This document shows positions 26,072-45,131 of a stretch of DNA of 64,000 nt, piece by piece; positions within the stretch are counted from its first letter, which is position 1, and every line of letters starts with the position of its first letter. Both the position numbers and the translations under genes were made by a program. This stretch comes from Nitrospirota bacterium (GTDB lineage: Bacteria; Nitrospirota; Nitrospiria; Nitrospirales; Nitrospiraceae): positions 3,704 through 67,703 of the forward strand of contig JAHRHE010000001.1 of the NCBI GenBank assembly GCA_020027965.1, read 5' to 3'. Below the pieces are notes generated by a model. It saw only the letters and a list, made by a program, of their open reading frames with translations, did not search any database and was not told the origin of the DNA.

Positions 26072-26077
26072 CAGAGC

Positions 26078-26176
26078 CGTGACGAGTGACGGGTGACGAG
26101 TGACAGGTGGGCTGCGGAAATGAATCCCAGGAGCCTTCCTGCAAACGCGTCACGCGTCACGTGTCACCCATCACGA
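26078..26176. repeat. period-7 inverted arm pair (GTGAC...GTCAC)
   Basis: GTGAC at 26079/26086/26093/26100. GTCAC/ATCAC at 26149/26156/26163/26170. ntrY-ntrX spacer. Confidence 0.9.
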
Positions 26177-26183
26177 GGACCGA

Positions 26184-27569
26184 ATGTCTGAATCGATTCT
26201 GATCGTGGATGACGAGCCAGCGATCCTGAATTCGCTGACAAAAATTCTTGAGGACGAAGGCTATCAGGTGCAGGTAGCCAAGACCGGAGCGGAGACGCTC
26301 AAGCTGATCTCAACGGATCCGCCAGATCTGGTGTTGCTGGATATTTGGATGCCTGAAATGGACGGGCTCGAGACCCTGAAGCGCGTCCGCGAGCTCTCGC
26401 TGCGACTGCCGGTGATGATGATGTCCGGGCATGGCTCGATCGAGACCGCGGTGAAGGCGATCAAGCTGGGTGCCTATGATTACATCGAGAAACCGCTCTC
26501 GCTCGAACACGTCACCCTGCGGGTTCGGCATGCCCTCGATCAGCATCGTCTGGAGGAGGAGAATCTCAGCCTGCGCACTCAGGTCGAGCGGCGGTTCGAA
26601 CTCGTCGGGAACTCGCCCGCCATGCAGCGACTTCGCCAGCTTGTCGCCACAGCCGGTCCCACAAACGGACGCGTCTTGATCTCGGGTGACAACGGAACCG
26701 GAAAGGAGCTGGTCGCCCGCGCGATCCACATGCAGAGCCCTCGCCGCGAGCGTCCGTTCGTGGCGGTCAACTGCGCCGCGATTCCGGAGACCCTGATCGA
26801 GAGCGAGCTGTTCGGACACGAGCGCGGTGCGTTCAGCGGCGCCACGCAGATGAAGCGCGGCCAGTTCGAACAGGCCAACGGGGGCACGCTCTTCCTCGAC
26901 GAGATCGGCGACATGAGTCTGAGCACGCAGTCCAAGGTCTTGCGGGCGCTGCAGGAACAACAGTTTCACCGGGTGGGCGGGACCAAGCTGTTGAAGGTGG
27001 ACGTACGCGTGATCGCGGCATCCAACAAACACCTGGCGAAGGAAATCGAGAAGGGGACGTTCAGAGACGACCTGTTTTACCGGTTGCATGTGTTGCCGAT
27101 CGAGGTGCCCGCCCTGCGTGAGCGGAAAGAAGACATTCCGCTGCTGGTCCGCCATTTCCTGCGCCTGCATGCGGAGGAACAAGGACTGAAGGCAAAAGAT
27201 GTCACTCCGGACGCGCTGGAAGCATTGCAACGCTACGATTGGCCGGGCAACATCCGAGAATTGCGCAACCTAGTCGAGCGACTGATGATCATGGTGCCGG
27301 GACCGGTCATCGAGGCCTCGGACGTGACCCTGTTCTTGCAGTCTCGTCCGGGGAGTCCCGCCGCCGCGCCGGGGCACCCATCTATGGCATCAAAGCCCTA
27401 CGACTCCCTTCGCGAGGCCCGCAATGCCTTCGAGCGTGACTACATCGCCCGCAAGCTCCGAGAGAACAACTGGAACGTGTCCCGAACCGCGGACCACCTC
27501 AAGATCGAGCGCAGCCACCTCCATCGGAAGATCAAGATGTTGAGTATCGAGCTGCGCCCTGAAAACTAG
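26184..27569 (+). CDS. ntrX: sigma-54-dependent response regulator (NtrX/NtrC family)
   Basis: 461 aa. Receiver (ILIVDDEP...DLVLLDIWMP), AAA+ (GDNGTGKELVARAIH, GAFSGA, ESELFGHERGAF), C-terminal HTH. Confidence 0.85.
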   Translation: MSESILIVDDEPAILNSLTKILEDEGYQVQVAKTGAETLKLISTDPPDLVLLDIWMPEMDGLETLKRVRELSLRLPVMMMSGHGSIETAVKAIKLGAYDYIEKPLSLEHVTLRVRHALDQHRLEEENLSLRTQVERRFELVGNSPAMQRLRQLVATAGPTNGRVLISGDNGTGKELVARAIHMQSPRRERPFVAVNCAAIPETLIESELFGHERGAFSGATQMKRGQFEQANGGTLFLDEIGDMSLSTQSKVLRALQEQQFHRVGGTKLLKVDVRVIAASNKHLAKEIEKGTFRDDLFYRLHVLPIEVPALRERKEDIPLLVRHFLRLHAEEQGLKAKDVTPDALEALQRYDWPGNIRELRNLVERLMIMVPGPVIEASDVTLFLQSRPGSPAAAPGHPSMASKPYDSLREARNAFERDYIARKLRENNWNVSRTADHLKIERSHLHRKIKMLSIELRPEN

Positions 27570-31580: not shown

Positions 31581-31656
31581 GGGGGGCTAGCTCAGTTGGG
31601 AGAGCACGACGTTCGCAACGTCGGGGTCGCGGGTTCAAATCCCGTGCCCTCCACCA
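31581..31656 (+). tRNA. tRNA-Ala (anticodon CGC), CCA encoded
   Basis: Hand-folded cloverleaf: acceptor GGGGGGC/GCCCTCC with G3:U70, D arm GCTC-AGTTGGGA-GAGC, anticodon loop TTCGCAA, T arm GCGGG-TTCAAAT-CCCGT. Confidence 0.9.
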
Positions 31657-31776: not shown

Positions 31777-31802
31777 GGGTTCAAATCCCGTGCCCTCCAC
31801 CA
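31777..31802 (+). repeat. exact 26-nt duplicate of the tRNA-Ala 3' end
   Basis: gggttcaaatcccgtgccctccacca at 31631-31656 and again at 31777-31802 (offset 146 nt). Confidence 0.9.
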
Positions 31803-32575: not shown

Positions 32576-33160
32576 TCAAGGCGTTGCTGCGGAGGGTGCA
32601 CCAGGTAGACCCAGGACGCCGGGAGCCTGCGTTCCGGCGGGTGGGCAGGTGACAGGCGGCGCGAGCGGATTGAGCGGATTCGGGCCGGGCGTGCAGGCCC
32701 GGGACGCCGCGGCCTGGACCTGAAAGGCGACCTGATTGTAGGCGATCGCGTTGTTGAAGTGCACCTTGCCGAGCGGCTGCGCGTTGCTCCGGCTCTTGAC
32801 CCCGCGGATCTCAGCGCCTGCCTTGATGAGTTCGAAGTCCTGTCCCGTGATCGGATCCTTGTACACGACCTGGAGATAGCGCTTCGGCAGCTTGGTAAGC
32901 TCCTCCAGACTCAGCGGATATTGATTCGGGCGTGTCGCCTTCTTGACCTGGTAGTCGGCTGCGAACGACTCAATGGCCGCCTTGATTCGGTTGCCGCGAA
33001 ACAGCAGTTCGGCCTCCTTGTCCCGCTTCACGGTGACCGCCCACTGCTTGCCGACCAGGGTCATGGCGATGCCCATCATCACGATCAGGAACATCACCAT
33101 GAGGTAGGTCACGCCGCGCTGGGTGGTGAGGATCGCCGCGCGACGACCTCCGCTGTTCAC
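32576..33160 (-). CDS. atypical pseudopilin-like protein (prepilin-type N-terminus without Glu+5)
   Basis: GTG 33160 overlaps the upstream stop (GTGA). Leader ...TTQRG then VTYLMVMFLIVMMGIAMTLV. Pro-rich C-terminus. Confidence 0.55.
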   Translation of the reverse strand: MNSGGRRAAILTTQRGVTYLMVMFLIVMMGIAMTLVGKQWAVTVKRDKEAELLFRGNRIKAAIESFAADYQVKKATRPNQYPLSLEELTKLPKRYLQVVYKDPITGQDFELIKAGAEIRGVKSRSNAQPLGKVHFNNAIAYNQVAFQVQAAASRACTPGPNPLNPLAPPVTCPPAGTQAPGVLGLPGAPSAATP

Positions 33161-33639
33161 TTGAACATGCCTCCGCCCTGCCCGGCACCCGGAGCTCGAG
33201 CTGGCGGGCAAGGGTTCTGATTGAACGGGTTGAGCGCGTTCACCCCTGGGATGCAGGGCTGCGCCCCCTGAGTCGCCACATCGGAAGAGGGCCCTGGGTC
33301 GCTGCCAACAGAAAGTCCAGGGGCCGCCTCGGGCGTCTGTTCCTGCATTGCAGGTGACTCGATCGGAACCGCCGGGGGCGCGGGGAGTGGTTCCATCGGG
33401 GACGTCATCGTGGGCAGATCAGACCTCTCGGGAAATCTGGCCGGCGCAGTACCACCGGCCGGAGGGACCGGGCTTGCCAGGTTCATCGGGCTGCAGTTCC
33501 TCAACTGGGCCGTGCTGTCGCTGAACACGCTCGTACCGCTTGAATCAGTACAACGGTACATCGCCGTCAGGGCCGGTTCACCGGCAAGGATCACTCCGAG
33601 CCCCAGCAGCGTGGCGAAGAAAAGGCCAAATCGAGGCAT
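33157..33639 (-). CDS. secreted DUF4124-like protein, Pro-rich
   Basis: 160 aa. Signal peptide, then MYRCTDSSGTSVFSD (DUF4124-like beta-hairpin motif). Confidence 0.55.
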   Translation of the reverse strand: MPRFGLFFATLLGLGVILAGEPALTAMYRCTDSSGTSVFSDSTAQLRNCSPMNLASPVPPAGGTAPARFPERSDLPTMTSPMEPLPAPPAVPIESPAMQEQTPEAAPGLSVGSDPGPSSDVATQGAQPCIPGVNALNPFNQNPCPPARAPGAGQGGGMFK

Positions 33640-33723
33640 CGTACTGCACCGTGCTTCGTTCTGAGTTCGAAGCGTTCAGTTGTCAGCTTAACTCAACACT
33701 CATAACCCAAATCTCATGGCTGC

Positions 33724-34458
33724 CTAGCGTCGGCGTAAGTGCAACTCGCCCTTGGCGGCGTCCAGCGTCACCAGGAACTTATCTAGAAACGTCAGACCTA
33801 GTAGACCTTCCACCCCCGGCGGTGCGTCCGGCAAATCGTGCACCGCGGCGGTCACGTTTCTTGCCTCAGCATCACTCACGCTGATCGTCTCCACCTGGAC
33901 GATGTCGGCCCGCACGGAGCCCCCGACGGTCCCCAACGTCACGGTCGGCGAGCTTGCGCTTGGCACGATCCCCAGGTCGCGAACTACTGCATACGACAGA
34001 ACCGTGATGTCGGCGCCGGTATCCAGGATCAACTTGGCGTCGCGCGTCCCGTTCAGCCGGACCTGGACGACCAACGAGCGGCCCGCGCGGAGAACCGGGA
34101 CTCGCACGTAGGCCGAGGGCTGGGTCGCCGCAAAAGCCTCAGAGGGTGACATCGCCGGTTCCTCACCGGTGGATGGAGGGGATGGCTGTTCACCAGGGGC
34201 TACCTTTGGTCTCGTGGGTGGCTTCTGAGCCTGAGGAGGCTCCTGGTAAATCACGGTGCAGTGTTCAGCTTGGACCGGGCTGTCGGTATACACGCTGGCA
34301 CCGGACGCGTCGATGCAGTGAAACACTGCCGGCCATGCCAGGCGAGGAGTCACAAGGCTCACCAGTCCAAGCGTGAGCGTCAGGATAGTGGCGTAGCGAG
34401 ACATGTGGTGCAACTCATGAGAGCTATGGATCTGTGAGCCCATGGTCTTCAGGGTCAC
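33724..34458 (-). CDS. DUF4124-like + retropepsin-like (clan AA) aspartic protease domain protein
   Basis: 244-aa ORF (alternative start MSRYATIL at 34404). VFHCIDASGASVYTD, then VRLNGTRDAKLILDTGADITVLS...GLLGLTFLDKF (DTGA catalytic motif). Confidence 0.65.
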   Translation of the reverse strand: MTLKTMGSQIHSSHELHHMSRYATILTLTLGLVSLVTPRLAWPAVFHCIDASGASVYTDSPVQAEHCTVIYQEPPQAQKPPTRPKVAPGEQPSPPSTGEEPAMSPSEAFAATQPSAYVRVPVLRAGRSLVVQVRLNGTRDAKLILDTGADITVLSYAVVRDLGIVPSASSPTVTLGTVGGSVRADIVQVETISVSDAEARNVTAAVHDLPDAPPGVEGLLGLTFLDKFLVTLDAAKGELHLRRR

Positions 34459-35105
34459 GACGGATCGGCCGGCTTGGTTAACGGAATGGTGGTCTCAAGG
34501 CTAGTGCCGGTCTCCTTGAGCTTGACAGAGGTGGCGTCGATCGACGTGATCTGGATACGCCCATCAACGGTCTCGCCAGGCCGAACGACAAAAATATCTT
34601 TCCCTTTGCTGAGAAACGCCTTCGACTCGCCTCCCTGTGTAAGGTAGCCCAGAAAGCGATACTGGCTCATGAGCTGGCGAGCCTGCTGGGCTGCGAATTC
34701 CTGCTGCTGGCGCGCCAACTCCTGTTGCCGACGAGCCTCTTGCGCGGCTAGCTCTTCCGGCGTGGGTGGCGGCGGGGCGGCGGGCTGCGGCGGAGGGACC
34801 GCGGGGAGGGCTGCCTCCTTCGCTCGCTTTCGGGCTGCGGCGAGCTTCTGCTTCTCCGGCTCGGTCAACGTCTCCGGCGGCGCGAAGATATTCTTGGGTG
34901 TCTTGAAGGAGACCTGGCTCTCCCGGGCCTGGGCCGGCCAAACGAGGGGAGGGAGATCGGCCCTCGGCCTCGCCTGCGCTGGTCCCGACTTGAACTTGAG
35001 CGTGACTCGCTGCGGCTCGGGCTCGTTCATGACCAGGAAGACTATCACAGTCAGCCACACCAGCGCTAATGCGCCCAGCAGGCCCCATTTGGTGCGGTCC
35101 GTCAT
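34455..35105 (-). CDS. PilP/GspC-like protein (TM anchor, Pro/Ala-rich linker, C-terminal beta domain)
   Basis: 216 aa. TM WGLLGALALVWLTVIVFLV. C-terminus YRFLGYLTQGGESKAFLSKGKDIFVVRPGETVDGRIQITSIDATSVKL resembles the PilP fold pattern. Confidence 0.5.
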   Translation of the reverse strand: MTDRTKWGLLGALALVWLTVIVFLVMNEPEPQRVTLKFKSGPAQARPRADLPPLVWPAQARESQVSFKTPKNIFAPPETLTEPEKQKLAAARKRAKEAALPAVPPPQPAAPPPPTPEELAAQEARRQQELARQQQEFAAQQARQLMSQYRFLGYLTQGGESKAFLSKGKDIFVVRPGETVDGRIQITSIDATSVKLKETGTSLETTIPLTKPADPS

Positions 35106-35695
35106 GCCTTGCCTTTCGTGTCCGGGATGTTCGGCCTGAGGAACGTGACCACACTCACGTTGAACACGACCTCTTGGCCGGCGGATCCGTGGCCCGTGCT
35201 CCGACCACTGGATGAGCGTGCCGCATCGAGACTCTCGACAAACAGGTAGGGCCCTGTCGTTTCCAACCGATGGATGAAACGGCGGATCGCGGCATACTCT
35301 CCCGCGGCCCGAAACCTCATGGAGGCTTTGATCGCCAGCCCGTCTTCCACCTTCTGGAACGAGTAGCTCATGGCCGGAACGGATACGCGATCATGCTTGG
35401 CCAGTTCGGAGATCGCAAGGCTGAGCATCGGGAACTCCTTCCTGGCGGGCAGGGTTCCCCAGATCTTCGCCAATTCCTCCTCGGACTTGCGAGCTGCTTC
35501 CAGTCGCGCCTGCGTCTGTCTGGCTGCTTCGTACGACGCCTGTGCGCTCGACAGGCGTTCCTCGGCCGGCGCCTGGAAGATCAGCCGGGCGCCAACAGCC
35601 ACACACAGCGCGAGTGTCGTCACCAGCAGCAAAGGTTGAAGGGCCCGGCAGGCTTGAACGGCGGACTGTGACAGGAATAAAGAGACTGCGCGCAT
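35102..35695 (-). CDS. PilO/GspM-like assembly protein
   Basis: 197 aa. TM, coiled coil, C-terminal ferredoxin-like pattern (IKASMRFRAAGEYAAIRRFIHRLE). 4-nt overlap with the next gene. Confidence 0.55.
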   Translation of the reverse strand: MRAVSLFLSQSAVQACRALQPLLLVTTLALCVAVGARLIFQAPAEERLSSAQASYEAARQTQARLEAARKSEEELAKIWGTLPARKEFPMLSLAISELAKHDRVSVPAMSYSFQKVEDGLAIKASMRFRAAGEYAAIRRFIHRLETTGPYLFVESLDAARSSSGRSTGHGSAGQEVVFNVSVVTFLRPNIPDTKGKA

Positions 35696-35710
35696 CGCTT
35701 CCCAGGCTCC

Positions 35711-36316
35711 TTACGAGAGTGCTGGTCGGTACATGACCGTCAACGTGAATTCGACCATGCCGGAGGTGTCCTGGCCGGAGATCTTCCCATCGCCTGACTC
35801 TTTGAACCGATGTTGAGAAAGCACCACGTCATGAAAGTCCGCATGGTTCTCTAAGTTGTTGACCAGGGCGGTCACATCTTTTAGCGTCAGTGCCGTCCCG
35901 TTCAGCGTAATGATAGAGTCTTTGAAGCTGAGCACGACCGAGCTGATGGAGACGTGCGGGGGGACCGCATCCTCCAGCTGACTGAGAAAACGAGTCCAGG
36001 AAAACGCCCGCTTCTCCAGTAACTGGTTCGCAAAGTCGACTTCACGATTGAGCGCCTTGATCCGCCCATCGGATAGATCGAGCCCGGCGCGCGAAGCCTG
36101 GGCCAGGAACTGACGGCTGGTCTCGCGGACCCGCTCGGCAGCCTGCTCGTACTTCGCCGCCGCCTCGACGATGGCGCGGCTGTCCCACCACATCCAGGCT
36201 GCCGACCCCAGCGACCCGACGATGACCAGAGCCATCGCCCACTGCGCCGCGCGCAGCAACTCGAAGCCTCGCCCGGCGAGCGACACCGACAACCGCGGGA
36301 GTGGAGTCGTCCTCAT
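35711..36316 (-). CDS. PilN-like fimbrial assembly protein
   Basis: 201 aa. TM WAMALVIVGSLGSAAWMWW, coiled coil, ...FSWTRFLSQLEDAVPPHVSISSVVL...ITLNGTALT. Confidence 0.6.
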   Translation of the reverse strand: MRTTPLPRLSVSLAGRGFELLRAAQWAMALVIVGSLGSAAWMWWDSRAIVEAAAKYEQAAERVRETSRQFLAQASRAGLDLSDGRIKALNREVDFANQLLEKRAFSWTRFLSQLEDAVPPHVSISSVVLSFKDSIITLNGTALTLKDVTALVNNLENHADFHDVVLSQHRFKESGDGKISGQDTSGMVEFTLTVMYRPALS

Positions 36317-36323
36317 GGCTCAG

Positions 36324-37484
36324 TCATGCCTCCCAGACGCCAGCCAGCGCGGCGAGCGCGGACAGAGGTCTGACCTGAGCCTCGTGTCGCTCTTGCCCGT
36401 GACTGGATCTTAGCAGGCTCTCCCACCCGACCGGAACCATATTGAGACGCAGCGAAGCGGCCAAGTCAGGATCGATCAGATTGCGCCACGACGCCACGGC
36501 CGTGGTGGGGTGCGCTGCGACAGTGGTCCCTGGTTCTGCACTATCTCGATATTGGTCCGGAGCGGCCTGTTCCTCGAGACGCTGACCGTCAGGGCAGGGA
36601 ACGTCAGCGCCGACGATGAACAAGGGACGAGGCAGGACGGGACATCCGTTCCGGGCTGCGGGCCGGACCTCGTCGTAGAACTGAATCGTGGCGCGTAGCT
36701 CGTCGGCAAGGTTCGTGTGCCCATCGCGCAGCGGCTTGATCCGATGAAAGACCGGAGAGTCGTGCTGGAGTGCAAAGAAGGAGAAGCCCGCCTGCGCGAC
36801 GTGGAGAAAGAAGAATTCCGACGGGTCCGTCCCGGGCGCCTGGCCTGGCGCCGGCGAATCGCGCTGGACGCCGCCCGGCGCGGCCGCCATGACAGGTCGG
36901 CAGAGATCGAAGAGCCGGAGAGAGCTCACTCCGAGGGAGACGGGAATGAGGCCGGCGACCTCGCAGACCTGCTCATACTGCTCGATGATCCGGCCCTGGA
37001 TTGCGGCCGCCAACACGCGATGCGTCTTGCGTGCGCCTTCGGCAGCAGAACCCGGCGTGGGGGGGAACACGCGGAAGGACAGCCGCGCACCGGTGGCTGG
37101 CATGCCCAGATCCTTCTGGAACCGCCAGCGCAGCAGCGCGTCGCATTCAGCCGCCTTGTTCGGCCAGACCTCGAACTCGAACAGGGCCAGCCGGGCGCAC
37201 AGATCCGGCAGGCTGAGGGCAACCGAGGCGACGCGCGACGCGTTCCGGGGGCTGCCCCGCAGAGTCCGGATCTCGCCGGCCAGCGCGGCGACGTCCGAGA
37301 CATTTAATTCAGTGGCGGACAGGTTCACGAGACCGGCCGGCAAGGCGCGCTCGCCGCACAGGCCGACGTGAATGTCACGCCACCCACGGCGCCAGTCCCG
37401 CTGGACCTCGAGCACGCTGAGGGTCCGCGCGTCGATGCTCAGACCGAGGCGGGGACGTTGAATGGGAAAGAGTGTGGGAAGCAT
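36324..37484 (-). CDS. PilM/GspL-cytoplasmic-domain-like protein
   Basis: 386 aa, positioned between the ATPase and PilN as in pilMN. Weak actin-like pattern; assigned mainly by context. Confidence 0.5.
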   Translation of the reverse strand: MLPTLFPIQRPRLGLSIDARTLSVLEVQRDWRRGWRDIHVGLCGERALPAGLVNLSATELNVSDVAALAGEIRTLRGSPRNASRVASVALSLPDLCARLALFEFEVWPNKAAECDALLRWRFQKDLGMPATGARLSFRVFPPTPGSAAEGARKTHRVLAAAIQGRIIEQYEQVCEVAGLIPVSLGVSSLRLFDLCRPVMAAAPGGVQRDSPAPGQAPGTDPSEFFFLHVAQAGFSFFALQHDSPVFHRIKPLRDGHTNLADELRATIQFYDEVRPAARNGCPVLPRPLFIVGADVPCPDGQRLEEQAAPDQYRDSAEPGTTVAAHPTTAVASWRNLIDPDLAASLRLNMVPVGWESLLRSSHGQERHEAQVRPLSALAALAGVWEA

Positions 37485-37485
37485 C

Positions 37486-39207
37486 CTAATGGCTGAATGT
37501 GACCCGGTTGACTTCCTTCAGTGTCGTCTCTCCGCGCAAAACCTTTTCGATGCCGGCCTCCCGCAGGCTCGTCATGCCGTCCCCGATGGCTGCCTTGCGG
37601 ATTTCCGACGCGGGCCTGCGCTCCAGGATCAGCTCTTTGATTCGATCCGTGAGGTCAAGAAACTCCGTGATGGCCCGGCGTCCCCGGAATCCCAGGCCGT
37701 TGCACTCCACGCACCCGATGCCGTGGTAAAAGGGCATATCCTTGACCTTCTCGTAATCCAGGCCGGATTCCTCGCACGCGGCGCGGTCCACTTGGTAGGG
37801 TGTCTTGCAGGATTCGCACATCGCTCGGACCAAGCGCTGTGCCAGGATGCAATTCAGGGCGGCCACAAAATTATACGGTTCGATGCCCATGTTCACGAAC
37901 CGGCTGATCACGTCAAAGGCGTTGTTCGCATGGACGGTCGAGAAGACCAGGTGCCCGGTGAGGGCGGACTGGATCGCGATCTGCGCGGTTTCCGCGTCGC
38001 GAATCTCACCGACCATGATTTTATCGGGATCGTGGCGGAGGATGGACCTGAGGCCGCGGGCGAAGGTCAGTCCCTTTTTCTCGTTCACCGGGATCTGGAC
38101 AATGCCCTTGAGCTGATACTCGACCGGATCCTCGATGGTAATGATCTTGTCCTGTTGGTTGTTGATCTCGTTGATCGCGCCGTACAGGGTCGTGGTCTTG
38201 CCGCTGCCGGTGGGGCCCGTCACCAGGACCATGCCGTACGGCTCCATGATCGCGCGCCGCAGTCGACGCAGGTCCTCCGCGTTGAACCCGAGTCGGTCAA
38301 GGCTCAGATCCTGCACGCCGGAGGCGAGGTCCGCCTTCTCCAAGATCCGGATGACCACGGATTCCCCGAACGCGCTGGGCAGGATCGAGACTCGGAAGTC
38401 CACCTTTCGCTGGTCGAGGCGGATCTTGAACCGGCCGTCCTGAGGGATCCGGCGCTCGGCGATGTCCAGCTCGGACATTACTTTTAGACGCGAAATCAGC
38501 GGCGCGTGAAACTTCATGTCCAGCGGGTCCATGGCGGGGTAGAGGATGCCGTCGATCCGGTACTTGACCTCGACGGCTCGTTCGCTGGCCTCGATGTGAA
38601 TGTCACTGGCCCGCTTCTGCAGCGCACTCAGGATGACCGTGTCTACCAGCTTGACGACCGGGCTCTGGTCCCTGGCGATCTTCTCGGCGGAGAGCACCTC
38701 GTCACCCTGCTCATCCTCGCGGATCAGGATGGGCCGGAACTCGGCTTGGATGCGCGTGATCACCTGGCTGTTGCCCTCGCTCTGCTTCAGCGATTCCAGG
38801 ATGGCCGCGCGCGAAGAGATGACCACGGTGAAGTCCCGTCCCAGGAGCAGCTCCAGCTCGTCGAGGGCGCGGAGGTTCTGCGGGTCGGCCATCGCAACCG
38901 TCAGGACCCCGTCCCATTCCTCCAGCGGCACGAACGGGTGCCGATGCATCCACTCGGCCGGGATGGTCTTGAAAAACTCGGGGTCCACGCGGAAATCCTT
39001 CAGGGGCTCGTAGCGCAACCCGTACTGCTCGGCCAGGGCTTCGGCCAGCGCCTCTTCCGAAAGTCCGCCTTGTTCCGTGAGCACGGTCCGGACCGTCCGG
39101 TTGGTCTCCTCGGCCTGACGGACGACCTGCTCAGCGTGCGCTTGCGAGAGCACGCCCCGTGTGACCAGGATCTCTTCCAGTGGTGCGCGTTTGACCGGTG
39201 TCGGCAT
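37486..39207 (-). CDS. GspE/PilB-family secretion ATPase
   Basis: Start at ATG 39207 (GAGGAGG 8 nt upstream; the ORF track extends to a TTG at 39243). T2SSE_N domain, Walker A GPTGSGKTTT, CESC...CVEC zinc motif. Confidence 0.9.
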   Translation of the reverse strand: MPTPVKRAPLEEILVTRGVLSQAHAEQVVRQAEETNRTVRTVLTEQGGLSEEALAEALAEQYGLRYEPLKDFRVDPEFFKTIPAEWMHRHPFVPLEEWDGVLTVAMADPQNLRALDELELLLGRDFTVVISSRAAILESLKQSEGNSQVITRIQAEFRPILIREDEQGDEVLSAEKIARDQSPVVKLVDTVILSALQKRASDIHIEASERAVEVKYRIDGILYPAMDPLDMKFHAPLISRLKVMSELDIAERRIPQDGRFKIRLDQRKVDFRVSILPSAFGESVVIRILEKADLASGVQDLSLDRLGFNAEDLRRLRRAIMEPYGMVLVTGPTGSGKTTTLYGAINEINNQQDKIITIEDPVEYQLKGIVQIPVNEKKGLTFARGLRSILRHDPDKIMVGEIRDAETAQIAIQSALTGHLVFSTVHANNAFDVISRFVNMGIEPYNFVAALNCILAQRLVRAMCESCKTPYQVDRAACEESGLDYEKVKDMPFYHGIGCVECNGLGFRGRRAITEFLDLTDRIKELILERRPASEIRKAAIGDGMTSLREAGIEKVLRGETTLKEVNRVTFSH

Positions 39208-39226
39208 TCTTTGGGCCTCCTCTGAA

Positions 39227-39331
39227 GAATGGTTAATGGTCAACGCAGAAATGGTCGATGATCGAAATCCTCATCAACCATAACGCATTAACCATCGGCC
39301 ATGTCCCCACATCCATCAGCCATCAACCGTT
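39227..39331. repeat. period-7 inverted arm pair (ATGG/CCAT family), gspF-gspE spacer
   Basis: gaatggt taatggt caacgca gaaatgg tcgatga tcgaaat cctcatc aaccata acgcatt aaccatc ggccatg tccccac atccatc agccatc aaccgtt. Confidence 0.85.
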
Positions 39332-39338
39332 GTCTTGT

Positions 39339-40544
39339 CTAGACCGTGCCTGCCATCTGAAAGATCGGCAGATACATCACGACCACAATTGCCCCGACGA
39401 TGATCCCCATCACGAGCAGGAGCGCGGGCTCGATCCAGGTGGTGAGCTGGTTCAGGCGGAGATCCAGCTCACCCTCGTGGAACTCGGCCACGTCCTGCAA
39501 CATCGTCTCGAGTGCGCCGGTCGTTTCGCCGACCTCGATCATTTCCAAGCTCATTTGCGGCAGGAAATGCTCCTGCTTCAAGGAAGCGGCCAGGCCTACC
39601 CCTTCCCTCACACGGTCGCTCGTGCTGGCCAGCGCGCTTGAGATCACCCGGTTGGTGATGGCCCCGCTGGTAATCTGCAGCGCAGACAGCAGCGGGATAC
39701 CGCCGCCGAGCAGCGTGGAGAGCGTGCGCGTCACACGAATGATCTGACTCTTCAGCAGGACGTCTCCGATGAGCGGCGCGCGCAGGCTCACCCGGTCCAG
39801 CAGCTCGCGGCCGGCCGGTGTGCGCGCCCAGCGGTAGATTCCGAACCCCAGGGCAACCGATCCCACGATCAACCACAGAAACCACCGCTGGAATTGCTCG
39901 ACGGCGGCCAGCAGCAGCCGGGTTGGGCCAGGCAGTTGCGCCCGGCTCTCGCCGTAGATCTCGGCGAAGGTCGGCATCACGTATACCACCAGAAACCCCA
40001 CCACCCCGATACCCACTACGACCAGAAACGCCGGATAGGTGAGTGCCTTCATTACCTTCTCGCGCACGGCGATCATCAGCTTGACGTGGGCGATATAGCG
40101 CTTGAGCACCTCGGGCAGGTTGCCGGTCTGCTCGCCTGCGCGGAGCGAGGCGCGATAGAGTTCCGAAAAGTGGTCAGGGTACCGTCCCATCGCTTCCGAA
40201 ATGGAAGCCCCTCCGCGAATCTCCTCGCGCACGCCCCGCAGGGCGGCTTGAAATCCTGGGTAGGACGCTCGTTCGGCGAGCAGGTCGATGGTCTTCAGGA
40301 TCGGCAGACCGGCCTTGACCAGCGCGACAAACTCCTGGTTGAACACCAGAAACTCGCGCAGCGAGAGATGGCCACCCGATCGACGCCGAGGGAGTGTGAT
40401 GCCCGCCCGCGAGCCTTCCAGACTGAACAGGAGTAACCCGCGAGCCTCGAGCTGGGTGCGGACGGCCGACTCGCTGTCCGCGTCCACCCGGTCGCTGATT
40501 ATCGTCCCATCCGCTCGTGCGGCTTTGTAGCGAAATTGCGGCAT
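39339..40544 (-). CDS. GspF/PilC-family inner-membrane platform protein
   Basis: 401 aa. Two T2SSF repeats (LVKAGLPILKTIDLL... / LLGGGIPLLSALQIT...), 3 TM segments. Confidence 0.9.
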   Translation of the reverse strand: MPQFRYKAARADGTIISDRVDADSESAVRTQLEARGLLLFSLEGSRAGITLPRRRSGGHLSLREFLVFNQEFVALVKAGLPILKTIDLLAERASYPGFQAALRGVREEIRGGASISEAMGRYPDHFSELYRASLRAGEQTGNLPEVLKRYIAHVKLMIAVREKVMKALTYPAFLVVVGIGVVGFLVVYVMPTFAEIYGESRAQLPGPTRLLLAAVEQFQRWFLWLIVGSVALGFGIYRWARTPAGRELLDRVSLRAPLIGDVLLKSQIIRVTRTLSTLLGGGIPLLSALQITSGAITNRVISSALASTSDRVREGVGLAASLKQEHFLPQMSLEMIEVGETTGALETMLQDVAEFHEGELDLRLNQLTTWIEPALLLVMGIIVGAIVVVMYLPIFQMAGTV

Positions 40545-40564
40545 ATTTAGATTAGAAACAGATA

Positions 40565-40725
40565 CATGGTTCTATGGTCAATGGCTGATTGATCTGGGAA
40601 CATGGCTGATGGTTAATGGTCCATGGTTGACGAGGATCCAGATCATCAACCATTTCCGCGTTGACCCTTGACCACTTCTTCTTCAGGGACCATTGACCAT
40701 TAGCCATTCACCATTATCCATTCTG
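40565..40725. repeat. 23 heptamers in register forming a long inverted arm pair (ATGG...CATT)
   Basis: catggtt ctatggt caatggc tgattga tctggga acatggc tgatggt taatggt ccatggt tgacgag gatccag atcatca accattt ccgcgtt gaccctt gaccact tcttctt cagggac cattgac cattagc cattcac cattatc cattctg. Confidence 0.9.
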
Positions 40726-40726
40726 C

Positions 40727-41491
40727 TTATGGGATCACTAACTGCTGGCCGATTAGGATCAGATCGCCGTGCAAGCCATTGGCGCTTTTTAGTTGCTCCA
40801 CGGTGAGGCCGTGCCGGCGTGCGATGGTCCAGAGCGAGTCACCTGCACGAACCTGGATGCTCAGCGGGCGGGTCGCTGAGGGAGCCGGCGGGTCGGTCAA
40901 GGACGCCGGTCGTACCACGGCCGGGGGTGTCCATAGGCTGCCGGTCGGCGTGTCGGGTCCGGTTCTCCGTTTGCCAGGTGGCTTGGCGAGTTCCCGCTTC
41001 ACCTGGGTCAGTTCCACGGTCAGCGTGGCCACTGCTGATTCCAATTCCGCCAACCGGGTCTGCATCATCGTGGCCGCAGGCTCGTCCTCGCTGGCCTGGC
41101 TGGGCAGGGACGGTGAGTCGGCAACTTGACCCGTGGTCCCTGTGCTGGCCTGAAGGAGCCGGTCTCGCTCATCTCGCAGCAGAGCCAATCCCGCTTGCAC
41201 GCTCTCGATCTCTTGAAGTTGCGCCGCCCGCGCCTGGCGGAGCTCGGCTGCCGCCTGACTCAGCTCCGCAATCTGGCGGCGCAGGTCCTGTATCTCCGCT
41301 TCCTTCTTGGCCGCACCAATCCGCGTGGCGGCCAGGTCCTGGCGGAGCGCGGCCACCTCCGCATATGAATCCCGGACCACCTGATCCGCCTGGCGCCGGG
41401 CCGCCTCGACCTCGGGTCCGGGCCAGGCGGTCCGGTCGGTCGTACAGCCCGAGACCAGCAGGCCGAGCACCAACAGAAAAAACGTGCCCAT
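40727..41491 (-). CDS. coiled-coil lipoprotein with C-terminal LysM domain
   Basis: Start at MGTFFLLVLGLLVSGC (lipobox). Long coiled coil. LysM: IQVRAGDSLWTIARRHGLTVEQLKSANGL...IGQQLVIP. Confidence 0.7.
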   Translation of the reverse strand: MGTFFLLVLGLLVSGCTTDRTAWPGPEVEAARRQADQVVRDSYAEVAALRQDLAATRIGAAKKEAEIQDLRRQIAELSQAAAELRQARAAQLQEIESVQAGLALLRDERDRLLQASTGTTGQVADSPSLPSQASEDEPAATMMQTRLAELESAVATLTVELTQVKRELAKPPGKRRTGPDTPTGSLWTPPAVVRPASLTDPPAPSATRPLSIQVRAGDSLWTIARRHGLTVEQLKSANGLHGDLILIGQQLVIP

Positions 41492-41501
41492 GCGCCTCGT
41501 C

Positions 41502-41915
41502 CTATAACTCGTTATAGGGGATCCCATCCGTACCGACCAAGTCGCTGCCGCTGTGCACGTCGAACACGCCGCCCTCCGCTTCATCCAGAATTTCCTGCCA
41601 CGTACTGTCGGCCTTTGTAAACGGGTCCAGCGGAATCCGCTTGACGTACCCGGCTGACTTCAGGTCGGCCAACGTGGGCGGGTAGGACCCGCGGTCTGCG
41701 CGATGCTGATCAATGGCGTCCCGCAAGGTGAACAGGTTCTGTTTGAGTGCCGCCTCCCTGGCCCTGACGATCGATTGCTGGAAGGAGGGTTCCGCTAACG
41801 AGACCAGGATCCCGGCGATCGTCACCACGATCATGAGCTCTGCGAGAGTGAACCCTCCTTGGCTCCGCCAGTGGCGAGAGGTGATGGGCGATGGGCTAGA
41901 GGGAAGACCTTTCAT
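41502..41915 (-). CDS. gspG: type II secretion major pseudopilin GspG-like
   Basis: Prepilin motif QGG/FTLAELMIVVTIAGILV (Gly-1, Phe+1, Glu+5). GspG-like ...GSYPPTLADL...YVKRIPLDPF. Confidence 0.8.
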   Translation of the reverse strand: MKGLPSSPSPITSRHWRSQGGFTLAELMIVVTIAGILVSLAEPSFQQSIVRAREAALKQNLFTLRDAIDQHRADRGSYPPTLADLKSAGYVKRIPLDPFTKADSTWQEILDEAEGGVFDVHSGSDLVGTDGIPYNEL

Positions 41916-42004
41916 CTCGTACGTGCGTCTCGAAGATTGCTCTGTGTACGTCCTACCCATAGCCTCGTACCTCTTGCCCTTGCCTCATGCCGGCGCGAAT
42001 GCGC

Positions 42005-42562
42005 CTACCACTCCCGATACTTCGACTTGTCAAGTGCGACATCGGGACTCTTGGAATACACGTCGAACACGTCTTCCCCGCACCAATCTTTGGCATCGGG
42101 CGGGTCCTGATAACACCGCAGGCCCCATTCCACCGTGCCCGTCATGGGATCGAGCGGGATGCGTCTCAGATAACGCCGGATCGGTTTGGTCTCACGGACC
42201 GTGGCTTCACCTCCGCTCAGATCGACGCCAAGCAGCGTCTTGAGCGACTTCGGATAGCCGGTGACGCCGGTGTATTCCTTACAGGACGTCTTGTTCTTCA
42301 CGCACAGGGGGCCTGTCAGGATCTCACCGTCTCGCGCCCAGTCCACCTTGAACTGATCGATGGCGGTGCGCATCTCCCGCAACCGCTGCCGCAGCTCCAA
42401 CTCCTGAGATCGTTGACTGCTGTACTTCGAGAGCGGAGTGGCCACTGACGCCAGGACGAGCACGATCGTGACAGTGACCAGCATTTCCAGCAAAGTCACG
42501 CCACGCTCAGAAGCCGTGACGCGTGACGCGTGAAGCGTGAAGCGAAGGAACCTTCGCATCAT
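42005..42562 (-). CDS. second GspG-like pseudopilin (larger, Cys-containing)
   Basis: Start at MMRRFLRF. ERG/VTLLEMLVTVTIVLVLA (Glu+5), ...YLRRIPLDPMTG. The leader peptide is encoded by a heptamer tract. Confidence 0.7.
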   Translation of the reverse strand: MMRRFLRFTLHASRVTASERGVTLLEMLVTVTIVLVLASVATPLSKYSSQRSQELELRQRLREMRTAIDQFKVDWARDGEILTGPLCVKNKTSCKEYTGVTGYPKSLKTLLGVDLSGGEATVRETKPIRRYLRRIPLDPMTGTVEWGLRCYQDPPDAKDWCGEDVFDVYSKSPDVALDKSKYREW

Positions 42563-42636
42563 TGACTCAAACCCGTCACTCGTCACCCCTCGACTAGGCT
42601 CGGGGTGACCCTGAGCCCGTCGAAGGGTCACGCATC
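42514..42636. repeat. period-7 tracts (GTGAC/GTGAAG ... GTCAC) plus a palindrome gaccctgagcccgtcgaagggtc
   Basis: ccgtgacgcgtgacgcgtgaagcgtgaagcgaagg (42514-42548, coding), cccgtcactcgtcacc (42572-42587), palindrome 42607-42629, cacgcatcacccatcac. Confidence 0.85.
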
Positions 42637-42650
42637 ACCCATCACTGTCC

Positions 42651-45131
42651 CTAACGCACCCGAATCATGGCCGGCGTCGACACGGTTACTGGAATCGCCT
42701 TGCCGTCAGCCCCGGACACGGTCGCCTGTTGGATCGTGATAGGGAAGCTGCCGGGAGCCTTGGCCTGAAAGAAGAATTTGGCCACGACTCCCCCGCCGGA
42801 AGACGGCGGGCCCTGCCGGCGCAGGTGGAGCGCGACCTGGCCTGCGCTCGGGTTGGCGGAGACGGTTAGCGCGGCAGGGGTGCCCCCCTGCGTGAGGAAC
42901 TCGCCCTCCAGCGCTCGGCGAAACTCTAACGCGTTCGAGTCGTACGCCAGCGTCAGTACGGATTCGGACAGACCGGCGATCTGTTCCGCCGTCACCTCCA
43001 CCTGGAATTCCTGGCCGACCGTCGTGGCGAGCTCTGATGGGCCTAGCGCGAGCACGGCCGCGCCGCGCGCCACGAGCGGGGACGATGGTGACGGCCCGGG
43101 TGTACCCTTGGCTGTCGGTGGCGGCCCCCCTAGGGTCCCCGCCGGTCCGCTGCCGGGCAGAGTCGGTGACGTGGGGGAGACTGAAGGTAGAGTGGGGGAG
43201 GCGGCCGGCGTGCCCCTTCCGCTGGTGCCAGGCGATGGCTTGGGCAGAGCGACCGGCGCGGGTGGGATCGGCGTCGCGGCGAGCTTTCCGTTGCCATTCC
43301 GCGAGACAGCCGAGAACATGGGGGTCGTCCCGTACTGGCCTTCGGTGCCGGACCAGAAGGCCTGCGTTTCCGGCCCCGGCATCGTGACGTTTCGGACAAG
43401 GCGAGGCGTGATCGTCAGCACGACTTCAGTCGTGATGACGTCCGTCTGCGTCGAGGTGAAGAGCTTGCCGAGGATCGGGATATCGCCGAGGCCCGGCACT
43501 GTCTGGAGGGTCTTTCGTTCTTCGTCCTGGATCAGCCCGGCCAGGATGATGCTCTCGTCGTTTTTCATGTTCAGGACCGTCTCCGCGGTCCTGGTCCCGA
43601 ATCTGAACTGCTGGATCAGGGGATTGGACTGCAAGGTGACCAGGTCACCGAGTCGGGTGACTTCGATCTTGAGCTTGAGTGTCAATTCGTCCATGAGGTG
43701 GATCGTGGGCTCCACGCTCAGCTTGATTCCTGTATCCTTGAACTCGATCGAGGTGACGGTGGAGGTCGTCGGAACCGCGCCGGTCGCGGCCTGCCCTGGC
43801 AGGACATTCGTGGTGGAGAGCAGAATGGGCTGCTTGTCGCCGATGTTGATCGAGGCCTGCTTGCCATTCAGGACCCGCAGCTTCGGAGAGGCCAGGGTCT
43901 TGGCATCCGACTCTTGCTTGAAGAAATCCAGAATGACGCTGGCCGGGAGCGTGAGGATGAAGCTCTCCGGCCCCAGGTCGGTCAATTGTTGCCACGTGAA
44001 CGTGGTCGTGTTCGCTGTGGTTCCTCCTGTGAACCCGGGCGGCACGATCCCGAATCCGGCCGACTTGGCGTAGTTCAGCCCGTATTTCAGGCTCTTGGTA
44101 CGGTTGATCTCCAGCACCTCGAGGTCCAGCTCAACCTCCCCCTCACGGCGATCGTTCGCGGTGATAATCCGTTCGGCCAGTTGCAGCTTCGCCGGTTGGT
44201 CCCGGACGACCAGAGCGTTGATCGGCTCGTTCACGTACACCCGTTTGGTCTCCAACATGGTCCGGAGCAGGTTCACCATGTCCTTGGCCTTGGCATTGGA
44301 CAGGTAGAACGTGCGGATCATGAGGTCCTGAAACTGATCCTGTTTCTGCTTCGTGTTGGGCGTCAGCAGCAGCGTGTCGGCGCTGACCCGGCGGGAGAAC
44401 AGACCGTTGGTGCGCACGATCAGGTTCAGCGCCTCGTCGAAGGGCATGTCCTTGATAAAGATCGTGATCGGTTCGTCGCGGATATCCTTGTCGAAGACGA
44501 CGTTGAGGCCGCCGGCCCTGGCCAGGATCTCGAACACCTCCTTCAGCTTGGCATTCTGGAACCTCAGGGTGACGGGCTGGGTAGAACCGCTCACCGCTTC
44601 GGCAGCTCGCTGCTGTTGCGTGATGGTGGTGATGGCTTCCACCGCCTGGGTGAGCCCAGGATCCAACTCAACCGCGCGTTCGTACGCCCCCAGGGCATCC
44701 TCGTACCGGCCGAGGCTCTGGAGTTTCTCGCCGGCCTGGGCCTGGTCGCGAGCCTCCTTCAGCCGCAAGGCGTCGCCCATCGCCACGTGGTGCTCGCTCC
44801 GCGAAGGATCCAGTCCGAGCGCGAATTTGAATTCGTTCAGCGCTTCCATGATCTGGTTGGCCTTCAGGTACTTCCGGCCTTGGGCGTAATGTTGCTCGGC
44901 CGCCCGCGCCTTGGCCTGGCTCAGACGCTCCTGCAGGCTCAGGTCAATCGGGTCTTTCTTCAAGGCGGCGCGGTAGGCCGCGACGGCACCGTCCCAATTT
45001 CCCTCGGCGGCCAGCTTCTCAGCGGTCCGGACTTCAGGCATGGTGCACCCGCCCAGGGAAACGATGGCCACCAGCGTGCTGAACAGGAACAGGAGGCTCA
45101 GAGGATGTGGAAAGCGGTGCGTGCTTTTCAT
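42651..45131 (-). CDS. secretin (GspD/PilQ family) with N-terminal lipobox + TPR region and C-terminal Pro-rich linker + cohesin-like domain
   Basis: Start at MKSTHRF...VSLGGC. TPR-like repeats. Secretin core (...VPGLGDIPILGKLFTSTQTDVITTEVVLTITPRLV). C-terminus ALGPSELATTVGQEFQVEVTAEQIAGLSESVLTLAYDSNALEF is cohesin-like. Confidence 0.85.
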   Translation of the reverse strand: MKSTHRFPHPLSLLFLFSTLVAIVSLGGCTMPEVRTAEKLAAEGNWDGAVAAYRAALKKDPIDLSLQERLSQAKARAAEQHYAQGRKYLKANQIMEALNEFKFALGLDPSRSEHHVAMGDALRLKEARDQAQAGEKLQSLGRYEDALGAYERAVELDPGLTQAVEAITTITQQQRAAEAVSGSTQPVTLRFQNAKLKEVFEILARAGGLNVVFDKDIRDEPITIFIKDMPFDEALNLIVRTNGLFSRRVSADTLLLTPNTKQKQDQFQDLMIRTFYLSNAKAKDMVNLLRTMLETKRVYVNEPINALVVRDQPAKLQLAERIITANDRREGEVELDLEVLEINRTKSLKYGLNYAKSAGFGIVPPGFTGGTTANTTTFTWQQLTDLGPESFILTLPASVILDFFKQESDAKTLASPKLRVLNGKQASINIGDKQPILLSTTNVLPGQAATGAVPTTSTVTSIEFKDTGIKLSVEPTIHLMDELTLKLKIEVTRLGDLVTLQSNPLIQQFRFGTRTAETVLNMKNDESIILAGLIQDEERKTLQTVPGLGDIPILGKLFTSTQTDVITTEVVLTITPRLVRNVTMPGPETQAFWSGTEGQYGTTPMFSAVSRNGNGKLAATPIPPAPVALPKPSPGTSGRGTPAASPTLPSVSPTSPTLPGSGPAGTLGGPPPTAKGTPGPSPSSPLVARGAAVLALGPSELATTVGQEFQVEVTAEQIAGLSESVLTLAYDSNALEFRRALEGEFLTQGGTPAALTVSANPSAGQVALHLRRQGPPSSGGGVVAKFFFQAKAPGSFPITIQQATVSGADGKAIPVTVSTPAMIRVR

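Follow-up and report, generated by a model that had tools for sequence, protein, structure and literature searches.

The first account of the Pul system, an "atypical T2SS" (type II secretion system), came from Geobacter sulfurreducens (Mehta et al. 2006, Microbiology 152:2257, cited in PMC3543383). The Pul-1 cluster tabulated in the Pelobacter carbinolicus genome paper (PMC3543383 Table S4) consists of pulF, pulE, pulM, pulN, pulO, pulP, pulQ (listed as "secretin lipoprotein"), pulG, and oxpG; ftsE, ftsX, and an M23 peptidase gene follow oxpG, and tklG is located elsewhere. As summarized in later papers, the Pul system is needed for secretion of the multicopper oxidase OmpB in Geobacter (PMC3543383, citing Mehta et al. 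2006; bioRxiv 10.1101/668343), and GSU1783 is annotated as PulE (PMC8557921). Here we analyzed a 64,000-nt window (positions 3704-67703 of contig C43) of a Nitrospirota genome (GCA_020027965.1; 3.6 Mb, 263 contigs, 97% complete), which related loci placed in the Nitrospiraceae/Nitrospirales. Thirteen co-directional open reading frames (ORFs), all on the minus strand between window positions 32576 and 45131, form a cluster whose core, judged by its sequence and gene order, is an orthologue of the Geobacteraceae Pul system. Positions given below are those of the window unless another contig or locus is named.

Comparison of the cluster with the Geobacteraceae Pul system

All nine genes of the Pul set (pulF, pulE, pulM, pulN, pulO, pulP, pulQ, and two adjacent GspG-like pseudopilin genes) were found in the window. 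For comparison, a Geobacteraceae genome assembled as one 3,814,128-bp contig (G322) carries a locus (L237) with the order F-E-M-N-O-P-Q-pseudopilin-pseudopilin-ftsE-ftsX-M23. Identity between the window and L237 proteins was 58% for the ATPase, 39% for the platform protein, 31% for the secretin (residues 21-802), 36% for the first pseudopilin (pp1), and 49% for the second (pp2). When the window proteins were searched against L237 by tblastn, all counterparts were matched except PulO and PulP, with PulN recovered only via its Nitrosospira orthologue; PulO and PulP of L237 were inferred from position and size. The window secretin is a lipoprotein, as PulQ is. The L237 secretin has an LAGC lipobox at the same place, and a tetratricopeptide repeat (TPR) N-terminus and a cohesin-like C-terminus are common to both. 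Homologues of the window secretin were detected in 29 of 31 sampled Geobacteraceae genomes at 31-36% identity, with about half of the matches extending to at least residue 800 and the others stopping at ~630-690. One Geobacter metagenome-assembled genome (MAG; G301) had no Pul cluster, its four ATPases being PilB, a canonical GspE, and two orphans.

The third pseudopilin (pp3) of the window has a Geobacteraceae counterpart as well. A profile of the pp3 family retrieved a 177-aa pseudopilin without Glu5 (G/FTFVG, the slash marking the cleavage point) that adjoins transketolase genes in two Geobacteraceae genomes (G322, E 4.7e-35; G309, E 5.1e-33), and we infer from gene name and neighborhood that this protein is TklG. 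Because gene content, synteny, identities, the pp3 profile match, and the ATPase clade described below agree, the cluster core is assigned as the orthologue of the published Geobacteraceae Pul system, with pp1 as the PulG-like, pp2 as the OxpG-like, and pp3 as the TklG-like pseudopilin. The first-pass annotation of this DNA had read the cluster as a hybrid and as a candidate for a poorly characterized multi-protein system. The idea of an undescribed hybrid is not supported, in that the cluster corresponds gene for gene to a named "atypical T2SS"; the architecture on which that view was built, GspG-type pseudopilins joined with a separate PilM/N/O/P module, is nevertheless real.

What the window shares with Geobacter is PulF/E/M/N/O/P, a lipoprotein secretin with TPR and tethered cohesin modules, PulG, OxpG, and a Glu5-less TklG. 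The differences lie in arrangement and additions. The order is F-E-M-N-O-P-Q-G-G in Geobacter but Q-G-G-LysM-F-E-M-N-O-P-X-X-TklG in the window, where the TklG-like gene is within the operon and not outside the cluster. Moreover, the window adds a LysM lipoprotein, a DUF4124-retropepsin fusion, and a DUF4124-like protein, and is without the ftsEX/M23 neighbors, and many Nitrospirales carry a second, reduced paralogous cluster. Members of the Pul family normally have neither a GspH-K tip set nor a local prepilin peptidase.

A machine of this type is already published and named, and is hardly studied. The new points are that it is present and nearly universal in Nitrospirales, that NC10 and ammonia oxidizers have it too, that the operon is permuted and includes a TklG-like gene, that LysM and retropepsin genes have been added, and that there is a reduced paralogue (type B, below). 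The finding is therefore a solid annotation with lineage-specific twists and no new class of system. Nitrospira are the main nitrite oxidizers of soils, waters, and wastewater plants, and to our knowledge protein secretion in these bacteria is essentially uncharacterized. The sole T2SS-like machine of this Nitrospira genome is of the Pul/OxpG type, as in Geobacter, NC10, Nitrosomonas, and Nitrosospira, which ties a widespread, almost unstudied machine, probably for secretion, to biogeochemically important organisms. Geobacter sulfurreducens, Nitrosomonas europaea, and Nitrosospira multiformis are tractable or cultivable stand-ins for the machine. Testable handles on it are offered by the tethered cohesin, which is conserved, by the third pseudopilin with its missing Glu5, and by the LysM and retropepsin genes specific to Nitrospirales.

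Phylogeny of the assembly ATPase

The window ATPase was searched against 1.84 billion cluster representatives, and trees were built on the C-terminal ~390 alignment columns, with E. coli GspE and HofB and the PilB-like, PilT, and PilU ATPases of the same genome as anchors. The window ATPase fell in a Nitrospirota clade nested within a larger well-supported clade, and did not group with the anchors. For ten proteins sampled from the larger clade, the scores were all below the PilB and GspE equivalog cut-offs, with the two scores nearly equal. In an IQ-TREE analysis (LG+C20 PMSF), a 43-row PulE-type clade (SH-aLRT 99) held the window ATPase together with those of the Geobacteraceae loci L237 and L238, which places it in the lineage of GSU1783-type PulE. 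E. coli GspE and the Geobacter Gsp ATPase formed a separate clade (support 99), and PilB clades were elsewhere. The phylogeny that the first-pass annotation had suggested as a check thus sets the ATPase, with good support, in a clade that excludes canonical GspE and PilB. Besides Nitrospirota and Geobacteraceae, the PulE-type clade takes in NC10/Methylomirabilota, Pyrinomonadaceae (Acidobacteriota), and many Nitrosomonas and Nitrosospira strains.

Named loci were fetched with the nearest non-Nitrospirota ATPase representative (P0127, NC10) as the query. Most of those in the clade have the order F-E-(M-N-O-P)-secretin-pp1-pp2-pp3, which among the fetched loci was limited to clade ATPases; in some 60 other fetched loci, whose ATPase does not belong to the clade, the order is of the D-E-F-G type. 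In two Pyrinomonadaceae loci the ATPase alone was found. With the exception of Pyrinomonadaceae, the clade loci all encode a TPR-secretin that is a lipoprotein and carries a cohesin on a tether at its C-terminus, together with two pseudopilins of the GspG kind and another one without Glu5. In Nitrosospira multiformis Nl7 (L162), for example, TPRs form the N-terminus of a lipoprotein secretin whose C-terminal domain is homologous, and the third pseudopilin (G/FTYIW) has no Glu5.

Several observations were made alongside. In the Nitrosospira locus, a canonical GspG gene precedes pulF (L162:7783-8265), and genes for a LuxR-type regulator and a PEP-CTERM protein lie directly downstream of the Pul-type cluster (L162:18243-20365). 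About 12 proteins of ~1000 aa in the tree (P0123, P0124, P0126, P0128-P0136, P0139) have two T2SSE-like stretches each and are thus tandem double ATPases; they are 37-46% identical to the window ATPase and make up a clade by themselves. No statement on the cluster was found in Denise et al. 2019 (PMC6668835) or Abby et al. 2016 (PMC4793230), whose mentions of Nitrospirae are limited to Tad and the type IVb pilus. A further literature match was rejected, in that the "Nitrospira" of PMC1569441 is a misnamed Nitrosospira, and that paper merely lists the NE1609/GSU1783-type GspE as a weak co-profile match.

Profile scores and comparison with other systems

None of the cluster proteins reached the NCBIfam equivalog cut-offs for T2SS, type IVa pilus (T4aP), or mannose-sensitive hemagglutinin (MSH) pilus components. 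The ATPase scored 576 bits with the PilB model (cut-off 675) and 552 with the GspE model (cut-off 630). The secretin scored 152 with GspD (351), 133 with PilQ (284), and 110 with MshL (250), and pp2 scored 49 with GspG (89). The platform protein scored 342 bits with TIGR02120 GspF (cut-off 424) and 290-297 bits with PilC models. Classification by hidden Markov models (HMMs) thus gave no clean assignment to T2SS, T4aP, or MSH, in line with the mixed character noted in the first-pass annotation.

A canonical T2SS was not recovered either by GspD/E/F/G equivalogs or by the GspC/L/M and GspH-I-J-K set; PilM- and PilN-like genes are separate and no GspL fusion was found with phmmer, a low-sensitivity test for these proteins. 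Compared with the canonical Gsp T2SS (E. coli K-12 gspC-O, Klebsiella Pul, Vibrio Eps), the cluster has GspD/E/F-family parts, GspG-fold pseudopilins, and no retraction ATPase, and a piston-type secretion through the secretin is presumed for both. It differs in the separate PilM- and PilN-like proteins instead of a GspL fusion, a PilP-like protein instead of GspC, the lack of a GspH/I/J/K tip, equivalog scores below cut-off, and a secretin with N0 and one N domain only, plus TPR and cohesin modules.

Similarly, no PilB equivalog, no PilA-type major pilin, and no PilT within the system were found that would make the cluster a T4aP. It resembles T4aP in its PilM/N/O/P-type alignment module, its PilB-like full-length ATPase, and a secretin TPR module recalling the pilotins PilF and Tgl. 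However, its pilins are GspG-like and not PilA-like, there is no PilT, the ATPase is outside the PilB clades, and a canonical T4aP, with pilMNOPQ and PilT/U, is encoded on other contigs of the genome. With the MSH pilus it shares an MshEN-type ATPase N-terminus, a secretin-associated TPR element (MshN), and a lipoprotein secretin. It differs from it in MshL and cyclic di-GMP (c-di-GMP) models below cut-off, the lack of MshM and of MshA-D/O-Q equivalents, and another gene order. With the c-di-GMP motif model NF053729 at 23.9 bits (cut-off 38) and the MshL score given above, MSH membership and a c-di-GMP-binding MshEN domain were both rejected.

Gene content and layout

The genes overlap or are separated by 44 nt or less throughout the cluster, save for three gaps. 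Two unusually long ones flank the platform gene (LysM/gspF, 182 nt, 40545-40726; gspF/gspE, 95 nt, 39244-39338) in an otherwise tightly packed operon, and the third (84 nt) lies between the retropepsin and DUF4124-like genes. With these three set aside, the short or overlapping junctions of co-directional genes were as described before, and each of the 13 gene assignments in the first-pass annotation was right according to Pfam, NCBIfam, and profile searches.

The first gene (42651-45131) encodes the PulQ-like lipoprotein secretin, assigned with Pfam, NCBIfam, AlphaFold2 (AF2), and Foldseek. It is followed by two GspG-family pseudopilin genes. The PulG-like pp1 (42005-42631; RG/VTLLE with Glu5; N_methyl, 23.7 bits; GspG N-terminal match) probably starts at Met24 (42562), and its orthologues are 168-178 aa long. 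The OxpG-like pp2 (41502-41960; GG/FTLAE with Glu5; TIGR01710 GspG, 49.4 bits) probably starts at Met16 (41915), and with GspG of E. coli it scored 50 bits, as opposed to 21 with PpdD, hence it is of the GspG type. The LysM coiled-coil lipoprotein gene comes next (40727-41584; LysM PF01476, 57.2 bits; LVSGC lipobox; SMC-like coiled-coil matches), with Met32 (41491) as the probable true start.

The platform and motor genes follow: a PulF/GspF-family inner-membrane platform protein (39339-40544; PF00482 T2SSF, 197.5 bits) and a PulE-type assembly ATPase (37486-39243; T2SSE, 440.8 bits) that bears an MshEN-type domain at its N-terminus. The divergent PulM/PilM-like cytoplasmic actin-fold protein (36324-37484; 386 aa) had no Pfam or NCBIfam match as a single sequence. 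When a 24-sequence profile of it was searched against the Protein Data Bank (PDB), it matched PilM of M. xanthus (3jc8, 9.6e-11) and T. thermophilus (2ych, 6.8e-9). The alignment module continues with a PulN/PilN-like bitopic protein (35711-36316; PF05137 PilN, 44 bits) and a PulO, or PilO-GspM-like, bitopic protein (35102-35695; T2SSM_b 22.1, PilO 20.3, and NF040576 GspM_XpsM 44.2 bits). It ends with a 216-aa PulP, or PilP-GspC-like, protein composed of an N-terminal membrane anchor, a Pro-rich linker, and a C-terminal beta domain (34455-35105), which was assigned by profile and synteny: its profile matched Neisseria PilP weakly in the PDB (4av2, 4e-3; 2ivw, 6e-3), and the position of its gene is kept in syntenic loci.

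Three genes complete the operon. The first encodes a secreted DUF4124-retropepsin fusion (33724-34458; Asp_protease_2 PF13650, 68 bits; DTGA active-site motif), the true start of which is probably Met18 (34407). The second encodes a small secreted DUF4124-like, Pro-rich protein (33157-33639) with a signal-peptide-like N-terminus and a YRCTDSSG motif. The last is the TklG-like pp3 (32576-33211; QRG/VTYLM, no Glu5), probably starting with a GTG at 33160.

Secretin architecture and the tethered cohesin

By Pfam, the secretin has a secretin domain (PF00263, 124.6 bits), TPR repeats, and Secretin_N; its N-terminus is a signal peptide followed by an LGGC lipobox. The AF2 model, built on a 38-sequence alignment, shows a helical TPR module at residues 30-178 (predicted local distance difference test, pLDDT, ~90), N0 and one further N domain, and a barrel at 332-580. 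The barrel is followed by a disordered Pro/Gly/Ser/Thr linker (585-689) and then by a confident beta-sandwich (690-826, pLDDT 80-93). The TPR element matched NF033762 at 3e-6. When the model was searched with Foldseek, secretins ranked 1-40 and cohesins 41-50. The C-terminal domain aligned with solved cohesins (2xdh, E 1.7e-9, TMt 0.79, rmsd 2.7; 6kgc, TMt 0.82), and Cohesin PF00963 scored 21.8 bits, below its cut-off of 24.1. As modeled, the C-terminal domain would thus have the nine-stranded cohesin beta-sandwich fold.

The tethered cohesin presumably docks some partner. It may be a docking site for cargo or accessory proteins, a principle of substrate recruitment not known in the classical T2SS, and the DUF4124 proteins and the retropepsin of Nitrospirales may then be cohesin clients or maturers of clients.

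Third pseudopilin and accessory genes

In the pp3 family alignment, G/x[TS]Y[LVI]xxM is conserved and no member has Glu5. AF2 predicted a pilin-like lollipop with a helix at residues 7-73 and a small sheet (pLDDT 80); the model had no significant Foldseek match, and the family profile had no sequence match in the PDB. By family alignment and synteny, this pseudopilin is kept with the core in relatives, and synteny gave the same result for the LysM gene, which in both paralogous forms occupies the same position in most Nitrospirales loci. No tblastn match to LysM was obtained in the loci of distant Nitrospirota, NC10, or Nitrosomonadales, and no LysM-type ORF was seen within the Nitrosospira and Geobacteraceae loci inspected. 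The LysM gene appears, from these comparisons, to be a Nitrospirales-specific insertion between the pseudopilin genes and pulF. A role of the lipoprotein as peptidoglycan tether of the machine is plausible by analogy with TsaP, FimV, and GspAB.

DUF4124 was sub-threshold in the window proteins (15.2 bits in the retropepsin fusion, 10.9 bits in the small protein) but above cut-off in their orthologues (28.3 bits, and 27.9 bits in a type B orthologue of the small protein). The retropepsin model TIGR02281 scored 45.9 bits, under its cut-off of 57.95. The retropepsin gene follows pulP in marine and other Nitrospirales, is not there in N. moscoviensis-type loci, and is upstream of the secretin gene in type B clusters. 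Among the 120 homologues listed of 275 found, those with a name are all Nitrospira-like, and most are without a name. The retropepsin appears to be a secreted clan-AA protease whose gene is an accessory restricted to Nitrospirota. Conservation of the small DUF4124-like gene among the loci was patchy. The two DUF4124 proteins could be either processing factors or cargo. The conservation of accessory genes with the core, which the first-pass annotation had made a test of its view, therefore held for LysM in most loci, was limited to type B and a subset of type A for the retropepsin, and was uneven for the DUF4124-like gene. Together, the LysM lipoprotein, the DUF4124-retropepsin pair, and the permuted gene order with a smaller paralogous cluster appear to be specific to Nitrospirales.

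Distribution in Nitrospirales and the reduced type B cluster

A secretin scan retrieved 52 loci, all from Nitrospirota and nearly all from Nitrospirales, including N. moscoviensis and an N. defluvii MAG. When the 13 proteins were searched by tblastn, synteny was found to be kept in two paralogous forms, A and B; because this synteny extends across ~50 Nitrospirales genomes, a chance arrangement is ruled out. Type A, the form of the window, has the order secretin-pp1-pp2-LysM-F-E-M-N-O-P. Its pp3 is directly after P in the N. moscoviensis lineage, or after the retropepsin gene, and in marine and other Nitrospirales it is just upstream of the secretin gene. In distant Nitrospirota families the order is F-E-M-N-O-P-secretin-pp1-pp2-pp3.

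Type B is a reduced cluster with the order (retropepsin, DUF4124)-secretin-pp2-LysM-E-M-N-O-P, and is without the platform gene, pp1, and pp3. It was found at eight loci (L002-L005, L009, L025, L028, L049) and in the genome of the window itself (C166:1-4953), where the copy ends at the contig end and the remainder is missing from the assembly. Two of six type B genomes (that of the N. defluvii MAG, G332, and G336) have a PilC-like gene only, and a platform gene of the PulF type was found nowhere in them. Type B may work by borrowing the platform protein of another machine; we consider this, together with recruitment of cargo or accessory proteins by the cohesin, quite unlikely.

In the IQ-TREE analysis, the type A ATPase of the window groups with type B ATPases (L002, L005, L009, L049; support 90) and not with those of N. 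moscoviensis-lineage type A clusters. This grouping suggests a lineage-specific duplication or gene conversion between type A and type B clusters.

Probable secretion function and alternatives

The remaining secretion and pilus genes of the genome were located outside the window. The sole prepilin peptidase is on contig C52. A canonical T4aP set consists of pilM (PF11104, 274 bits) and a PilQ-type secretin on C167, a PilB-like ATPase on C44, PilC on C248, and PilT/PilU on C254; a Tad locus is on C12. With E. coli K-12 queries in phmmer, a low-sensitivity test, GspC, GspL, GspM, GspJ, and GspK were not found genome-wide, and GspH and GspI had no match in the contig of the window and weak ones on C146 and C120. 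The absences from the window reported in the first-pass annotation were thus correct for the prepilin peptidase, the GspH/I/J/K set (to the sensitivity of that search), and the retraction ATPase. The best GspE and GspG matches of the genome fall in the cluster. Since there is no second GspE/GspG-like set, and T4aP and Tad are separate, the cluster is the only candidate T2SS of the genome.

We consider it probable, by analogy with OxpG and OmpB in Geobacter, that the cluster represents, in Nitrospira, the Pul-type atypical T2SS and functions in protein secretion. From the gene content, orthology, and domain folds observed, the secretion function, the roles of the added proteins, and the nature of the cargo can be proposed conditionally, the individual steps being derived from homology to T2SS and T4aP machines. 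The PulG-, OxpG-, and TklG-like prepilins would be cut by the single prepilin peptidase encoded elsewhere in the genome. A PulE hexamer on the PulF platform would polymerize the pseudopilins into a short periplasmic pseudopilus, which the Glu5-less subunit probably primes or caps. PulM, cytoplasmic and actin-like, would form with PulN/O/P a trans-periplasmic alignment frame from the motor to N0 of the secretin. The secretin lipoprotein would pilot itself via its lipid anchor and pilotin-like TPR module, with its cohesin, on a flexible tether of ~100 residues, presumably docking a partner. The pseudopilus would then push folded periplasmic cargo out through the secretin. The LysM coiled-coil lipoprotein probably ties the machine to peptidoglycan, and the periplasmic DUF4124 proteins would be processing factors or cargo.

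Several points weigh against this account. Evidence on what the family does comes from a single Geobacter study, cited here through later papers. A PilMNOP-type frame and a PilB-like ATPase N-terminal domain fit a true surface pilus as well. No cargo gene is evident in the flanks (purM/purN, tRNA-Ala, yqeY, MFS transporter), and no dockerin (PF00404) was found in the genome of the window.

The machine could instead build a non-retractile surface pilus from GspG-like subunits, used for adhesion or microcolonies and not for secretion of soluble proteins. Nitrospira grows as dense aggregates, which would agree with such a pilus, as would the T4aP-type PilM/N/O/P frame, the full-length PilB-like ATPase with its MshEN-type domain and PilB proteins as its top solved-structure matches, and the presence of three pilin genes only, with no GspH-K tip set. 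Moreover, OxpG is marked as pilin-like by its aromatic content in bioRxiv 10.1101/668343. However, the pilins are short and of the GspG type (50 bits with GspG versus 21 with PpdD), a canonical T4aP and a Tad pilus are already in the genome, and the one experimental report on the family, as relayed by PMC3543383 (citing Mehta 2006), is of a secretion defect. We therefore regard a surface pilus as unlikely.

Another explanation is that the secretin and its machine export or organize the extracellular matrix, whether exopolysaccharide ("slime") or proteins sorted by PEP-CTERM/exosortase; the cohesin would then hold matrix components. In cyanobacteria and myxobacteria, slime secretion depends on secretins of the GspD/PilQ type (PMC12475490). 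Among 51 Nitrospiraceae genomes, a PulM-like gene and exosortase (PF09721) occurred together in 36, Pul only in 4, exosortase only in 4, and neither in 7, a raw count that ignores phylogeny and genome size; the PEP-CTERM gene just downstream of the Nitrosospira multiformis cluster points the same way. But the genome of the window, 97% complete, has the cluster and no exosortase, and the cluster flanks hold no polysaccharide-synthesis genes, so that a matrix function is very unlikely. A type IV filament machine of a wholly new hybrid class, with no relation to described subtypes, would agree with the failure to reach any NCBIfam equivalog cut-off for GspD/E/F/G, PilB/Q, or MshL and with an ATPase clade outside canonical GspE and PilB, but is hardly credible, being already contradicted by gene-for-gene orthology and common synteny with the named Geobacteraceae Pul system. 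Protein secretion by a Pul-type machine accordingly remains the account that we prefer.

Flanking regions

Scans for sigma-70 promoters and terminators and a pattern search for sigma-54 gave nothing above chance, and Rfam detected neither a riboswitch nor a leader RNA in a 570-nt stretch upstream of the secretin gene. Genes for an NtrY-like sensor kinase (NtrY_N, HAMP, PAS, HisKA) and for a response regulator that depends on sigma-54 lie on the opposite strand, ~5 kb downstream of the cluster (23696-27569); upstream of the secretin gene, no sigma-54 promoter was seen that was convincing. A tRNA-Ala(CGC) gene (31581-31656) is located just downstream of the cluster. A 16-nt 3' part of it (GGGCACGGGATTTGAA, minus strand) is repeated ~145 nt on, at 31780-31795, and looks like a partial 3'-end duplication of the kind that integration leaves.

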